This document shows, in pieces, positions 39,308 to 45,747 of a DNA stretch of 64,000 bases (positions are counted from its first letter, which is position 1; each line of letters starts with the position of its first letter). The notes beneath the pieces were generated by a model. The model did not search any database. It had not been told where the DNA came from and saw only the letters and a program-made list of their open reading frames with translations. This DNA comes from Sulfuricurvum sp. GTDB lineage: Bacteria; Campylobacterota; Campylobacteria; Campylobacterales; Sulfurimonadaceae. The position numbers and the translations under genes are program-made. The DNA is taken from contig JAUYRN010000012.1 in assembly GCA_030696775.1 (NCBI GenBank), positions 65,426 through 129,425 on the forward strand. The letters run 5' to 3'.

Positions 39308-39331
39308 AAAAAATCTCTGCCGGAGCAGAGA
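39308..39331 (-). terminator. Intrinsic terminator after nifK
   Basis: TCTCTGC-CGGA-GCAGAGA stem with a T-run on the minus strand. Confidence 0.7.
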
Positions 39332-39374: not shown

Positions 39375-40919
39375 TTAGCGTATAAGGTCGAAGAAATAGT
39401 CGGTTGTTGCGATACCTTTGGTATCTTCATCCAACTGGTCAAGAACTTTGTTCGTGATCCAAGTAAGAAGGTTCAAAGCCCCATCGTACCCGCTGATAGA
39501 GTAACGGTGAAGGTGGTGACGGTCGAAGATTGGGAATCCGATGTAGATCAACGGAGTACCAGTATCGCGCATCAACTCTTTACCATAGCTGTTACCGATC
39601 ATGAAATCGACAGGCTCAGTGAAGAGAAGTGAACGCATTGCCCACAAGTCTTTACCAGCCCATACATTCAAACTGTCTTTTGCAGGAGACGTATCGAGCA
39701 TTGCTCTCATCTCTGCTTCCCAACCGTTTGGTGCATTGTGGCAAAGAACGTGAGTAGGCTCAGCACCCATCTCTAACAAGAATGATACTGCACCGATTAG
39801 GAAGTCAGGATCACCCCAGATAGCGAATTTTTTACCGTGCATGTACGGATAGCTGTCTTGCATAGCATCAACTAAACGGCCGCGCTCGATTTTTAGTTTT
39901 GATGGAACTTCTGTCCCTGTCAATTCTGCAAGTTTCATAACAAATTCATCTGTCCCTTTAAGACCGACTGGGTTAGAGAATCCACCTGCATGTTTCCAAC
40001 GTTTTTCGACCATTTTCATGGTTTTAACGGTAGCGTATTTTTGTAAAGAGATCGTTGCACTTGAATTGATACAATCTTTTGCATCATCCAATTTTGTTCC
40101 GCCTTGGAACATTTCGTATTGACCTGCTGGCATATCCCACTGATCAGAGTGGTCTCCCAACATAATATAGTCAGTTCCGAATGCTTCTACGATACTTTTT
40201 ACCGAACGAAGGCTTCCGATGTACGTTTCAAAACCAGGAATGATGTTGATACGTTGTTTCGTTTCGCCTTTGTTTCCTTCTGTAAGCTGTGACATGATAC
40301 CGTGCATCATGTTATCATATCCAGTAATATGACTTCCAACGAATGATGGAGTATGCGCATAAGGGATTGGATAATCAGAAGCAAGGTATTCGCCGCCGTC
40401 TTCTTCTTTTGCTGCAATGATAAACGCCATCAAGTCGTCACCGATTACTTCTGCCATACATGTGGTAGAAACAGCGATCATTTTAGGTTTATAAACAGCA
40501 GCACAGTTTTTAAGACCCTCTTTCATATTTACCAATCCACCAAATACTGCAGCATCTTCAGTCATAGAATCCGATACACATGGTGTAGGCTCTTTGAAGT
40601 GACGAGTAAAGTATGAACGGAAATACGCAACACATCCATGTGAACCATGAACGTAAGGCATAGTACCTTCAAATCCGAGTGCAACCATAACCGCACCAAG
40701 TGGTTGGCATGCTTTAGCAGGATTAACAGTAATAGCTTCCCTGGCAAGGTTTTTCTCACGGTAATCCCATGATTTAGTCCACTCAGCAATCTCTTCTACT
40801 TTCGCAGGATTAACAGCGAGCATGGACGACTCAAATTGTTTTTTGTTTTTAAGTACTTCTTGATACTCAGGTCGTTTAAACAGGTCTTTCCCGTTGACGA
40901 TTTTTTCTACTTCTTGCAT
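39375..40919 (-). CDS. nifK: Nitrogenase MoFe protein beta chain
   Basis: P-cluster Cys in KACQPLG, SHGCVAY and TTCMAE. Start MQEVEK has an AAGGA RBS. Confidence 0.97.
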   Translation of the reverse strand: MQEVEKIVNGKDLFKRPEYQEVLKNKKQFESSMLAVNPAKVEEIAEWTKSWDYREKNLAREAITVNPAKACQPLGAVMVALGFEGTMPYVHGSHGCVAYFRSYFTRHFKEPTPCVSDSMTEDAAVFGGLVNMKEGLKNCAAVYKPKMIAVSTTCMAEVIGDDLMAFIIAAKEEDGGEYLASDYPIPYAHTPSFVGSHITGYDNMMHGIMSQLTEGNKGETKQRINIIPGFETYIGSLRSVKSIVEAFGTDYIMLGDHSDQWDMPAGQYEMFQGGTKLDDAKDCINSSATISLQKYATVKTMKMVEKRWKHAGGFSNPVGLKGTDEFVMKLAELTGTEVPSKLKIERGRLVDAMQDSYPYMHGKKFAIWGDPDFLIGAVSFLLEMGAEPTHVLCHNAPNGWEAEMRAMLDTSPAKDSLNVWAGKDLWAMRSLLFTEPVDFMIGNSYGKELMRDTGTPLIYIGFPIFDRHHLHRYSISGYDGALNLLTWITNKVLDQLDEDTKGIATTDYFFDLIR

Positions 40920-41070
40920 TGTGTTTTCCTTGGTATAGACAATTTTCTGCCTCATACGAGGCAAGGAATTTTCAAAGCGCCAAAAGCGCAAGGGCCTTCT
41001 GCGAGAGCCAACTCAGTGTGTTTAATGCATCTGAGCTAGACTTTGCTCGCTCAGCTTAGGAAAAAAGGCT

Positions 41071-42537
41071 TCAGCCTTCTTTCTCCCATGGTGCTTTTGA
41101 ATGTGCCCATACAGGAGAATTGATCGCAAGATCCATATCCTGGGCGAAAATAGCGAATCCATCGTACCCGTGGTAAGGTCCGCTGTAATCCCATGAGTGC
41201 ATTTGACGGTATGGGAGACCCATTTTTTGGAATACATACTTCTCTTTGATCCCAGAAGCTACAAGATCTGGTTGAAGTTTTTTAACAAATGCTTCAAGCT
41301 CATACTCGTTAACGTCATCATAGATAACAGTTGAACGGAAGATCTCTTCTTTAGTACGTTTGTAGTCATCATCATGAGCGAACTCATATCCTGTTCCGAT
41401 TACTTCCATACCCAAATCTTCATATGCTCCGATAACGTGACGAGGACGAAGACCGCCGACGAACAACATAACCGTTTTACCTTCAAGACGTGGCTTATAT
41501 TTTGCGATAACCGCATCGATCATCGGTTGATATTTAGCGATAACTTCTTCACATTTTTTCTGAACACTTTCGTCAAAGAACGCCGCGATTTTACGGAGTG
41601 ATTTGATGGTTTGTGACGGTCCGAAGAAGTTGTACTCGATCCAAGGAATCCCGTACTCTTTTTCCATGTGACGGCTGATATAGTTCATTGAACGGTAGCA
41701 GTGAAGCAAGTTCAATTTTACTTTTGGTGTCAATGCCATCTCTTTAAGAGTTGCATCTCCTGACCATTGTGCAACAACACGAAGGCCCATTTCTTCCAAA
41801 AGGATACGGCTTGACCATGCGTCACCACCGATGTTATAGTCACCGATAATTGCTACGTCATACTCAGTCGTTTCAACATCGCTTGTATTAACATTTACTT
41901 TACCATCAAAGATAAAGTCACGTACTGTGTCATTTGCAATGTGGTGCCCAAGACTTTGCGAAACTCCACGGAAACCTTCACAGTTAACAGGAACGATAAC
42001 TTTATCAAGCTCTTTTGCTTTAACACGTGCTACTGCACCGATATCATCCCCGATCAAACCGATTGGACATTCTGATTGGACAGTGATACCATTATTAAGA
42101 GGGAAAAGTACTTCGATTTCATCGATACATTTACCCAATTTTTTATCTCCGCCGAAAACGATGTTGTTCTCTTGGAAATCCGAGCTAAAGTTCATCGTTA
42201 CAAACGTATCAACACCCGTTACACCGATGTAATAGTTACGACGACCTGCACGGCTATATTGACCGCATCCGATTGGTCCGTGACTGATGTGGATCATATC
42301 TTTGACAGGACCCCATACAACCCCTTTAGAACCTGCATAAGCACAACCGCGTTGGCTCATAACACCGGGAACGGTTTTTTTGTTTGAACGGACATCGCCG
42401 CACGTTTTTTGATTTTCATCATTTGGAGATCCGACACCTAAATGTTTTTCACGGTTTTTCGCCGCTTTTTCAGGATACGCTTTTAAGATCTCTTCAATGG
42501 CCGCTTTTTGTTTGGCTTCTAGTGATTCTGGTCCCAT
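41071..42537 (-). CDS. nifD: Nitrogenase MoFe protein alpha chain
   Basis: P-cluster [14 protein letters not shown] and SECPIG; FeMoco ligands LHCYRSM and MHSWDY. Confidence 0.98.
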
Positions 42538-42551
42538 AATACACCTCTTCC

Positions 42552-42911
42552 TTACGCGACTTCGATACGGAATTGTTCCATATTATCGAGGTTATGACAC
42601 AATTTCATTGTCTCATCGTCTGCTGCATCAACGCGTTTTGAGATTTCTGACATTTGGTAACGATTCATATAAATCATGTACTTTTGTACTCTGTCTGGAT
42701 TCTCTTCTTTGAAATAATGAACCATTGCACGGAACAAGAATGTATCTTTATTCGTGTAGCTCAACCATTCTTTATCTCTCTCTTTAGTGCCCATCAAAAG
42801 TTTAATCTCTTTAACGTCACTGATATCAACATCGGCAATTTTTTCTGCAACTAATTCGTCTGGAATATGATTCCCCATTGAAGCTGGGAAGTGAAAACCT
42901 AATACAAACAT
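42552..42911 (-). CDS. Hypothetical protein between nifH and nifD (119 aa)
   Basis: Clean ORF with an AAGGAGA RBS, same strand as nifHDK; no family recognised. Confidence 0.8.
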
Positions 42912-43013
42912 CTAATCTCCTTTTTCTGTTGTTTTCTTTTCATTATTAACAAGATGTTATTGGTCATTTGCATGACAGCCATTGAAGATTCCTCAAAAGA
43001 GGAACCGTTTTCT

Positions 43014-43937
<924 letters not shown>

Positions 43938-43963: not shown

Positions 43964-43980
43964 TGCAAAGGATGTTCTAA
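43964..43980 (-). promoter_or_regulatory. Sigma54-like -24/-12 element upstream of nifH (TTAGAACATCCTTTGCA)
   Basis: AG-N10-GC spacing, with GC about 37 nt before the ATG. The same motif occurs at four other nif units. Confidence 0.65.
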
Positions 43981-44179: not shown

Positions 44180-44737
44180 ATGACCAATAAAGAAAAATTT
44201 ATCCATAATATGCATCAAGCCAGAACCGCACACATACGCTGGGTCAATGCAATCAAGCTCCTGGTATCCGGTATTGATGTTGATGAGAAACAAATCACAC
44301 TGGATGCAACCCATTCACAATTTGGTTTATGGTATTACAATGAAGCGATGCTTTTCAGCCTAGGATCAAGCCGATTGGTACTTGAAGAGATCGAAAACTA
44401 TCTAATGGAGCTTCATGATAAATACACGAAAATCTATCCTATCTATTATGGAAGTCGCAAACGCAATCTTCTAAGTGAACTTTTAGGAGGAAGATCACGT
44501 GCCAGCGCACATGAAATCGAACTTTCCCAACGATTTTATGAAGAGATCATCCAGCTCTCGGATAAACTCAAACATAAACTTCGTATTTTTGAAGCACAAC
44601 TGATGAGTTTGTCTGAAGAAAAGTTTGATGAATTAAGCAGTTTTACACAAAACGAGGAATTAACGTCTGAAGCAATAGAAATTGAAACTGCTTCTGAAAA
44701 TGAGGGAGCTTATCATTATGGAGCACGGGGGAGATAA
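44180..44737 (+). CDS. Stand-alone CZB-like domain protein
   Basis: AHIRWV, D..H.QFGLWY and LHDKY pattern; the Zn-binding Cys position is Ser. Confidence 0.7.
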   Translation: MTNKEKFIHNMHQARTAHIRWVNAIKLLVSGIDVDEKQITLDATHSQFGLWYYNEAMLFSLGSSRLVLEEIENYLMELHDKYTKIYPIYYGSRKRNLLSELLGGRSRASAHEIELSQRFYEEIIQLSDKLKHKLRIFEAQLMSLSEEKFDELSSFTQNEELTSEAIEIETASENEGAYHYGARGR

Positions 44738-45177
44738 TACATCAGCCCCATATTGCTCGTCTTAAATCCAAAAGTTTGATAAAAAGCAATCGCCGAATCA
44801 TTTCGTCTATCAGCACCTAATGTAATACGTCCATATCCAAGAGTATTTGCAGTATCAATCATAGAACCAAGAAGTAAACGACCAACACCGATTCTGCGAA
44901 ACTCGTTGGAAACAATCATGTCTTCGATCAACCCAACACGTTCACCCATCGCAGTCGAAACAAGTCCTTGCATGGAGATCATACCGATTACCTGCCCGGA
45001 AATTTCTGCAACCAAAACAAGGCAGTTTTTGCTTTCCAGTAAGAGTTCTAAACCCTGCATTTGTTTCTCAATGTCAATAATAAAATCATCTTCGATAAGA
45101 AATAGCTCTGCCAGTAGCCCCGCCATAACACTAACATCATCATAACAAGCATCTCGTATTTTAATGTCAGCGCCCAC
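44716..45177 (-). CDS. GNAT N-acetyltransferase
   Basis: IVSNEFRRIGVGRLL and AIAFYQTFGF. Confidence 0.88.
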   Translation of the reverse strand: MGADIKIRDACYDDVSVMAGLLAELFLIEDDFIIDIEKQMQGLELLLESKNCLVLVAEISGQVIGMISMQGLVSTAMGERVGLIEDMIVSNEFRRIGVGRLLLGSMIDTANTLGYGRITLGADRRNDSAIAFYQTFGFKTSNMGLMYYLPRAP

Positions 45178-45445
45178 TTTTCATTCTCTCTAGGATTTCG
45201 CCCAGTTTATCATTGCGTAATTGAATGAGTCGATCGATTTCATCGTAATCAAATTTCCCAGTATAAGCCATATCAAAGATTCTGAGAAGGGCTGCACGAC
45301 AGCAGCTCTTGTCACACTCTGTGACGAGTTTCTTGGCTTTTTTATAAGGTAGTGAGGTGTCTTGAAAGATCTTGATAGCATCGGCAACACTCTTGCCTCC
45401 GCATTCGCATATTTCGTGGACTAAAACCTCTTCTTTCGTAGGCAT
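45167..45445 (-). CDS. Small Cys-rich protein, possibly BFD-like [2Fe-2S]
   Basis: ICECGG ... CDKSCC in a nif context. Confidence 0.55.
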   Translation of the reverse strand: MPTKEEVLVHEICECGGKSVADAIKIFQDTSLPYKKAKKLVTECDKSCCRAALLRIFDMAYTGKFDYDEIDRLIQLRNDKLGEILERMKSGR

Positions 45446-45456
45446 GACAACATCCC

Positions 45457-45654
45457 TTAAAGAGAATGCTCTGCTTTATACGCATTTGCCTTTTCGACAG
45501 CAACGTAAAGCTTTTCAGCCAGTTCAGGCATTTTTACATGATTACTCCAAACCGTATCTTCAACAATGTCATGAATCTCAGAGGCAACTTCGATTGCCAA
45601 GCGTTTAAGTTTTGCCAACTCTTTTCTTTGTTCTTGTTCGGTCATTTCCGACAT
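45457..45654 (-). CDS. Rop-like / CCE_0567 family nif-associated protein
   Basis: Two-helix protein with an IHDIVED motif resembling the family LHDLxED. Confidence 0.65.
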   Translation of the reverse strand: MSEMTEQEQRKELAKLKRLAIEVASEIHDIVEDTVWSNHVKMPELAEKLYVAVEKANAYKAEHSL

Positions 45655-45747
45655 AATCAATCCTTTTTTTATTTAATTTTACACACTTAAACGAGCAAAG
45701 CCCGTTTAAGTGGCAAGGACAAGTTTGTCCTTTGCAATCCCCTAAAG

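Follow-up and report, generated by a model that had tools for sequence, protein, structure and literature searches.

The window analysed here is a stretch of 64,000 nucleotides from the genome of a Sulfuricurvum sp. (contig JAUYRN010000012.1), in which the structural genes of a molybdenum nitrogenase lie on the minus strand and an additional gene, referred to here as gene X, is found between nifH and nifD. The features of this operon are as follows.

43964..43979, minus strand: TAGAAC-N5-TTTGCA, a sigma-54-like element of the -24/-12 type, about 50 nt before the start codon of nifH
43014..43928, minus strand: nifH (Fe protein, 304 aa), which leads the operon; E = 1e-133 to solved NifH
43638..43667, minus strand: 9-aa beta-hairpin insertion of NifH, at about residues 88-97, seen as a gap relative to solved NifH in the alignment
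42989..43004, minus strand: short hairpin lacking a T-run, just past the stop codon of nifH; z = -0.7 for the fold of the region, not significant
42917..42921, minus strand: AGGAG Shine-Dalgarno sequence of gene X, 5 nt before its ATG, from reading the sequence
42552..42911, minus strand: gene X, a 119-aa open reading frame with an ATG start, from direct reading of the sequence and the list of open reading frames
42552-42554, minus strand: TAA stop codon of gene X, from reading the sequence
42538..42551, minus strand: 14-nt spacer between gene X and nifD, GGAAGAGGTGTATT, which holds the nifD ribosome-binding site; from the sequence
41071..42537, minus strand: nifD (MoFe protein alpha chain, 488 aa), directly downstream of gene X, with its ATG at 42537
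39375..40919, minus strand: nifK (MoFe protein beta chain), with an ATG start placed by orthologue alignment, sequence and frame arithmetic
39314..39331, minus strand: terminator-like hairpin with a T-run after nifK, at the end of the unit, where the RNA depth falls in runs X2 and X3

The gap between the end of nifH and the start of gene X measures 102 nt. The 14-nt spacing between gene X and nifD is identical in about 40 Sulfuricurvum loci, and it is about 10-15 nt in Wolinella and Lebetimonas; when the distance is counted from the last codon of X to the nifD start, the value of 18 corresponds to the stop codon plus 14 nt plus 1. An earlier, sequence-only reading of this DNA had described a 119-aa frame with a strong ribosome-binding site, 14 nt from nifD, and its coordinates, the AGGAG and the spacing are borne out here, with the addition of the strand, which it did not state. 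The GC content at third codon positions of gene X (0.375) resembles that of nifH (0.354) and nifD (0.368), and horizontal acquisition of X on compositional grounds was therefore rejected.

The start of nifK is most likely the ATG at 40919 (MQEVEKIVNG...) and not the TTG at 40991 given by the ORF finder, because the orthologues align only from residue 21-25 of the ORF-finder version (39375-40991) onwards. The resulting nifD-nifK spacer (40920-41070) is 151 nt long, contains many short inverted repeats and is shared by this strain with a small number of sister strains; in most Sulfuricurvum loci and in the run contigs, position 40919 is joined straight to 41071, with 4 nt between nifD and nifK. 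The spacer is single-copy in the window and has no Rfam match, as is the case for the whole 38.5-45 kb region of the window searched against Rfam, and it may have arisen by insertion of a small element or may encode a regulatory RNA.

Regarding the transcription of the operon, the sigma-54-like element is conserved at -50 of nifH in the Sulfuricurvum loci, and similar GGAAC-N5-TTGCA elements are found in some other genera. In the window, its -24 dinucleotide is AG instead of GG and the match, taken alone, is not significant; we regard it as a candidate operon promoter. A promoter belonging to X itself was considered and rejected, given that none of the 91 nifH-X spacers contains a sigma-54-like motif and that the hairpin following nifH lacks a T-run; judged by its sequence, this hairpin would be an intercistronic stem-loop rather than a terminator. 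In the cDNA runs X2 and X3, the depth over nifH-X-nifD-nifK reaches hundreds to thousands, compared with less than 35 in the flanks, which represents 10-100 times the flanking values with sharp edges at the operon ends; this contig-based depth is crude, and related strains inflate it over the conserved nifH and nifD. Five separate metatranscriptomes yielded contigs over X, some of these contigs spanning X into nifH (42870-43164, 42649-43122 and 42901-43086) and others spanning X into nifD (42461-42675 and 42431-42581). Being assembler contigs with 85-99% identity to the window, they inform on presence and co-transcription, not on stoichiometry. Gene X is thus co-transcribed with nifH and nifD and is carried by the same mRNA as the nitrogenase subunits.

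Further genes accompany the operon. Upstream of nifH, on the minus strand at 44716-45660 in the window, and also at L001:4972-6938 and L004:4494-6548, lies a conserved trio formed by a Rop-like protein (PF05082), a Cys-rich protein of about 90 aa without Pfam match (45167-45445 in the window) and a GNAT acetyltransferase. The latter is a stand-alone protein of 153 aa in the window; in Lebetimonas and in a Helicobacteraceae MAG it occurs as a fusion with leucine-rich repeats (about 500 aa). The trio includes further uncharacterised nif-linked genes of the Campylobacterota. Divergent from nifH, on the plus strand at 44180-44737, a 185-aa protein shows a weak match to CZB, the chemoreceptor zinc-binding domain, with E = 4e-5, which is under the Pfam cutoff.

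The distribution of the X family was determined at several levels of sensitivity. A word-indexed search recovered 59 close relatives with 50-92% identity and lengths of 115-126 aa, while a broader profile gathered 399 clusters (about 400, at 90% identity). The exhaustive search of 1.84 billion cluster representatives with the X-family HMM returned 22 proteins only; the family is closed, with no detectable relatives. In a scan of one genome per species, relatives of X were found in 111 stretches; the 80 loci examined all come from Campylobacterota or from bins with plainly loose labels. All named members are "hypothetical protein" from Campylobacterota, and their carriers include Sulfuricurvum, Sulfurimonas, Sulfurovaceae, Sulfurospirillum tamanense, Arcobacter, Halarcobacter anaerophilus, Campylobacteraceae, Wolinella succinogenes and Lebetimonas. 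Nine family members (P0036, P0040, P0042, P0043, P0045, P0047, P0048, P0050 and P0053) bear the JGI/IMG label "phosphopentomutase". This identity was rejected for X, as no profile or structure search backs the name, and the label looks like a propagated mis-annotation.

The order nifH-X-nifD, on the same strand, was found in every locus in which both flanks are present (84 loci in the main tally), and it is kept in the most divergent members despite a different arrangement of the remaining nif cluster. A search starting from NifD, combined with its genomic context, gave the same picture, with an X homologue of about 120 aa in the slot of Wolinella succinogenes, Sulfurospirillum barnesii and Arcobacter sp. 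FWKO B. X was absent from none of the approximately 100 Campylobacterota clusters examined, and it is kept alike in strict anaerobes (the thermophile Lebetimonas, and Wolinella) and in microaerophilic sulfur oxidisers. By contrast, in the nearest two clusters from outside the Campylobacterota (Sessilibacter and an unnamed contig), nifH is followed directly by nifD, without X. No homologue away from the nifH-nifD slot was found in the HMM search of 1.84 billion proteins or among the 399 clusters, and the slot is occupied by a single gene, not by a pair of the nifI1/nifI2 type, in the window and in all loci. The homology and neighbourhood survey that had been suggested for the nif clusters of this phylum thus yielded no X homologue unlinked from nif. 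X is lineage-specific to the Campylobacterota and dedicated to nitrogenase. Of the earlier proposal of a lineage-specific nitrogenase regulator, chaperone or maturation factor, the lineage specificity and the dedication to nitrogenase hold on the basis of distribution, synteny and co-transcription, and the roles it listed are weighed below.

Two irregularities were observed among these loci. In a Lebetimonas assembly (L003:8396-9880) and in the Helicobacteraceae MAG (L004:8666-10141), the nifD call is split into two or three pieces, which reflects either a frameshift or an assembly error, and gene X is intact upstream of the fragmented nifD in both. The Sulfuricurvum sp. STA_65 MAG contains two nifH-X-nifDK loci (L014 and L015), on separate contigs and with unlike nifD-nifK spacing, which corresponds either to a true duplication or to a strain mixture in the bin.

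The protein encoded by X is conserved from Met1 onwards, where it begins with the motif MFxxGxxFPAxxGN; a second conserved motif, TN(K/R)YQ, is located at the start of helix 3. Among 58 diverse members, the residues M1, F2, G5, F8, A10, G13, Y85 and Q86 are invariant. The X of the window contains both family motifs, MFxxGxxFPAxxGN and (T)N(K/R)YQ, and the length range of the family is 115-128 aa. The median dN/dS among Sulfuricurvum orthologues is 0.097 for X, compared with 0.057 for nifH and 0.054 for nifD, and X is under strong purifying selection across the Campylobacterota. The AlphaFold2 predictions reached a pLDDT of 88.8 with 21 sequences and of 91.1 with 58 sequences, with a pTM of 0.83-0.84. 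The structure prediction proposed for X alone produced a confident alpha/beta fold with five strands, which is reproduced with the two alignments. The modelled elements are, in the first half, strand (2-7), helix (18-25), strand (36-40), strand (48-52) and helix (58-68) and, in the second half, helix (81-94), helix (99-108) and strand (114-118). Four independent grounds, namely conservation, selection, structure and transcription, establish that X is a genuine gene, well beyond a chance open reading frame.

The protein is mildly acidic (pI 4.5-5.7), and no conserved set of Cys or His residues was found in the 58 diverse members; the sole widespread cysteine is C105 (97%), which is replaced by Ala in P0063 and P0065. 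The lack of conserved Cys and His argues against X carrying an Fe-S cluster or binding FeMo-co, and a metal cofactor in X seems unlikely on this sequence evidence. An Fe-S or redox protein resembling FeSII was rejected for the same lack of a conserved Cys set, and Pfam gave no Fer2 match.

No characterised Nif accessory family was recovered for X in Pfam, NCBIfam, the PDB or Foldseek, in agreement with the expectation of the sequence-only reading. At a threshold of E <= 10, Pfam-A and NCBIfam gave nothing better than E = 0.06, and the chance matches (Mso1, Ras_bdg_2 and RpoA2) are all far under the cutoffs; the PDB sequence search returned only a chance stretch of Cas13a. There was no match in Pfam to AnfG_VnfG (PF03139), none in Pfam or NCBIfam to the NafY/NifY/NifX models (PF02579 and PF16844) or to a NifM-type rotamase, and none at E <= 10 to the models of NifW, NifZ, NifT, CowN and the Rop-like family (DUF683). 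As controls, the precomputed Pfam matches pick out the genuine NifX and NafY of neighbouring loci, and the NifW, NifZ, NifT and Rop-like members of the nif neighbourhood are identified too. Membership in the PII/NifI family (PF00543) was likewise rejected: no P-II match appeared in Pfam or NCBIfam at E <= 10, and hhalign against E. coli GlnB, whose sequence was entered by hand, gave a probability of 0.1%. These searches confirm the previous remark that X has no PII T-loop or B-loop signature, and the X models show no loop as long as a T-loop connecting strands 2 and 3.

With regard to structure, Foldseek returned nothing at E <= 1e-3, whether the two models were compared with the PDB or the first model was compared with BFVD. 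PII structures are absent from the PDB matches listed for both models, and V- or Fe-nitrogenase structures and parvulin are absent from the matches listed. The recurring match is the distal N-terminal subdomain of P. aeruginosa DapD (PDB 3R5A-D), with a TM-score of 0.45-0.47, E about 0.01 and 16% identity over about 92 aligned columns. This subdomain consists of a four-stranded antiparallel sheet with flanking helices and contributes no part of the active site (PMC3281039), and X resembles it in having an antiparallel sheet flanked by helices. A function for X was not read from this likeness, since the TM-score is below 0.5 and the subdomain, part of an enzyme of lysine biosynthesis, is non-catalytic and of unknown role (PMC3281039).

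The comparison of the flanking nitrogenase proteins revealed a second feature of this lineage, the hairpin insertion in NifH, which is the most informative correlate of X and was missed in the sequence-only reading. The distance between the DSTRLIL and SGGPEPG motifs is 54 residues in 80 X loci (+9) and 57 residues in 9 X loci (+12), compared with 45 residues in 2 outgroups without X. The insertion is therefore present in 89 of the 89 measurable X loci, a tally that leaves out 2 loci whose contig truncates NifH, and in 0 of the 2 outgroups. The +12 form occurs in Wolinella, Sulfurospirillum and Arcobacter, and the NifH of the window has the +9 form. The inserted segment follows the pattern (I/L/M)F-x-P-x(3-6)-GG(W/Y), varies among sub-clades and is located immediately ahead of the strand that runs to the cluster-ligand loop; both displayed alignments to solved NifH are gapped at this site, and in A. 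vinelandii NifH the equivalent turn lies at about residues 79-82. No comparable clade-specific indel was seen in the alignment of NifD. X and the remodelled surface hairpin of NifH are thus two shared derived characters of one nitrogenase lineage; their co-occurrence goes back to one evolutionary event at the base of the clade, so that coincidence is possible. In the A. vinelandii Fe protein, the turn into which the hairpin is inserted presumably faces away from the MoFe-docking and cluster face. Binding at this site would then involve no obvious gating of electron transfer, and the contact would modulate the Fe protein instead of sterically blocking its docking. In the literature searched, we found no mention of the NifH insertion or of gene X, a scope that falls short of proving gene X unknown.

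The position of X invites comparison with several known systems. In methanogens, clostridia and Chlorobi, the place between nifH and nifD is occupied by nifI1/nifI2, whose products are cytoplasmic proteins of about 105-130 aa that lack metal clusters and bind NifDK. X is similarly small, probably has no metal cluster and is encoded between nifH and nifD in the structural operon. It could accordingly be a functional analogue of the NifI1/NifI2 switch-off system without being a member of it, blocking the encounter of NifH with NifDK upon a nitrogen or energy signal. Apart from the shared slot, this possibility gains from the fact that PII-type or DraT/DraG genes were not called in the Campylobacterota nif loci examined, and from our reading of the model, in which the first 80 residues follow the beta-alpha-beta-beta-alpha-beta order of PII. 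Nevertheless, X is not PII by profile (no Pfam match at E <= 10; hhalign 0.1% against the hand-entered GlnB sequence), by motif (no T-loop, B-loop or obvious ligand-binding motif) or by fold search (no PII among the Foldseek matches listed); it is a single gene as opposed to a pair, and it belongs to a Group I-type cluster (NifK with the DUF3364 N-terminal extension) restricted to the Campylobacterota. In addition, a conditional regulator should vanish in some lineages, and 0 of about 100 clusters lack X. We consider this analogy improbable. Much the same low standing is given to the idea that the MoFe protein permanently includes X as an extra subunit bound to NifD, like AnfG/VnfG, the delta subunit of the Fe-only and V nitrogenases and a stoichiometric partner of their D subunit. 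The similar size (about 115-130 aa), the location as an extra gene inside the structural operon and close to nifD, and the universal retention of X agree with it. However, X has no match to the AnfG_VnfG profile, its model is alpha/beta and not all-helical, it lies between H and D instead of between D and K, it accompanies a Mo-nitrogenase, and the alignment of NifD shows no clade-specific surface change.

A more serious alternative, although still an unlikely one, is that X acts transiently in the maturation or assembly of the MoFe protein, in the role that NafY/NifY (the gamma protein) or NifW/NifZ play elsewhere: it would hold apo-NifDK open or stable until the insertion of FeMo-co or the P-cluster and then depart. 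NafY/NifY and NifX are accessory proteins of nif operons that bind apo-NifDK, and the Campylobacterota clusters seen have nifX, DUF269, nifW and nifZ, while a DIMCO_N protein of the NafY/NifY type is absent from the loci examined, leaving a gap that X could fill. The gammaproteobacterial outgroup does have a DIMCO_N protein, after nifK and nifT, and the published synteny string of S. barnesii/A. nitrofigilis is also without nifY and nifM (PMC11773926). The tight coupling of X to nifD, by the 14-nt spacer in Sulfuricurvum and about 10-15 nt in Wolinella and Lebetimonas, and its universal retention would suit an essential maturation step as well. On the other hand, X has no likeness in sequence or fold to NafY, NifY, NifX, NifW or NifZ, including the DIMCO_N and Nitro_FeMo-Co domains, nor does it have the conserved His or Cys with which a cluster or cofactor would be held; many diazotrophs manage without NafY, and the clade-specific feature is present in NifH and absent in NifD. 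Finally, it is hardly credible that the function of X is not specific to nitrogenase, the gene being a hitch-hiker in the operon, or that X is not a functional protein. The lack of a recognisable domain in Pfam and NCBIfam is what would speak for this, but linkage and selection already contradict such a view: X is never outside the nifH-nifD slot, its dN/dS is 0.097, its fold is confident and it is transcribed with nifH and nifD.

The reading that we prefer, with a probability of roughly 0.5, is that X is an obligate accessory protein that binds nitrogenase, as suggested by its linkage, its constraint and its co-occurrence with the altered NifH. An obligate partner is favoured over a conditional regulator because X is retained in every cluster examined, across lifestyles. 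In mechanistic terms, X would be a soluble alpha/beta protein of about 120 aa, without metal or nucleotide cofactor, encoded by an integral cistron of nifH-X-nifD-nifK, that arose or became fixed together with the 9-12-residue hairpin extension of NifH, with which it may be causally linked. It would bind nitrogenase by protein-protein contact through the MFxxGxxFPAxxGN and TN(K/R)YQ motifs. Its likeliest target would be the modified Fe protein, or alternatively the pair formed by the Fe protein and the MoFe protein; the Fe protein is favoured as the primary partner because NifH has the only clade-specific structural change found in the enzyme. X would then stabilise the enzyme or gate its activity, acting as an auxiliary subunit or dedicated stabiliser and not as a conditional, signal-sensing switch.

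Known proteins offer partial precedents for such an obligate partner. FeSII (Shethna protein II) of Azotobacter is a small protein that binds both nitrogenase components and confers conformational protection, and it can be taken as a model for a cofactor-independent clamp role of X; FeSII itself, unlike X, belongs to the 2Fe-2S ferredoxins, has four Cys ligands and is encoded outside the nifHDK operon. NifM, the Fe-protein-specific PPIase of Gammaproteobacteria, contains a parvulin rotamase domain and provides a precedent for an accessory protein that is restricted to one lineage and on which the NifH of that clade depends, although it is larger than X, which has no such domain. As a counterpoint, membership in the structural operon also fits transient chaperones, an example being nifY of the Klebsiella nifHDKTY operon.

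A specific contact between X and the hairpin extension of NifH is a tentative refinement of the obligate-partner reading, and we would not rely on it. Bolder and less probable still is the proposal that the Mo-nitrogenase of the Campylobacterota constitutes a structurally distinct sub-class, with X as an obligate stoichiometric component docked on the hairpin extension of NifH. Such an Fe protein/MoFe protein system of three gene products would differ from the canonical two-component Mo-nitrogenase, and in it X may gate the Fe-protein cycle or else act as a tether or protective clamp.

The Mo-nitrogenase is among the most intensively studied enzymes, and its structural operon is usually written nifHDK. 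To our knowledge, the only widely recognised genes between nifH and nifD are the PII-like nifI1/nifI2. Our results indicate that a third, unrelated gene fills this slot across the Campylobacterota, the phylum that dominates dark, sulfidic and hydrothermal diazotrophy, together with an altered Fe protein. Gene X has been public since the sequence of Wolinella succinogenes, yet it is annotated only as "hypothetical", and a synteny survey from 2025 wrote the cluster of S. barnesii/A. nitrofigilis as nifVBHDKTAENXXaFWZQ, without gene X (PMC11773926). It represents an unnamed, phylum-wide family embedded in the nif operon, more general than could be seen from a single sequence, and it is probably an unrecognised partner of nitrogenase. 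If X is needed for activity, the expression or engineering of nitrogenases of the Campylobacterota type would fail without it, X would be usable as a marker of diazotrophy in Campylobacterota genomes, and the genetically tractable Wolinella and Sulfurospirillum would allow direct tests of a new way of partnering or regulating the Fe protein.
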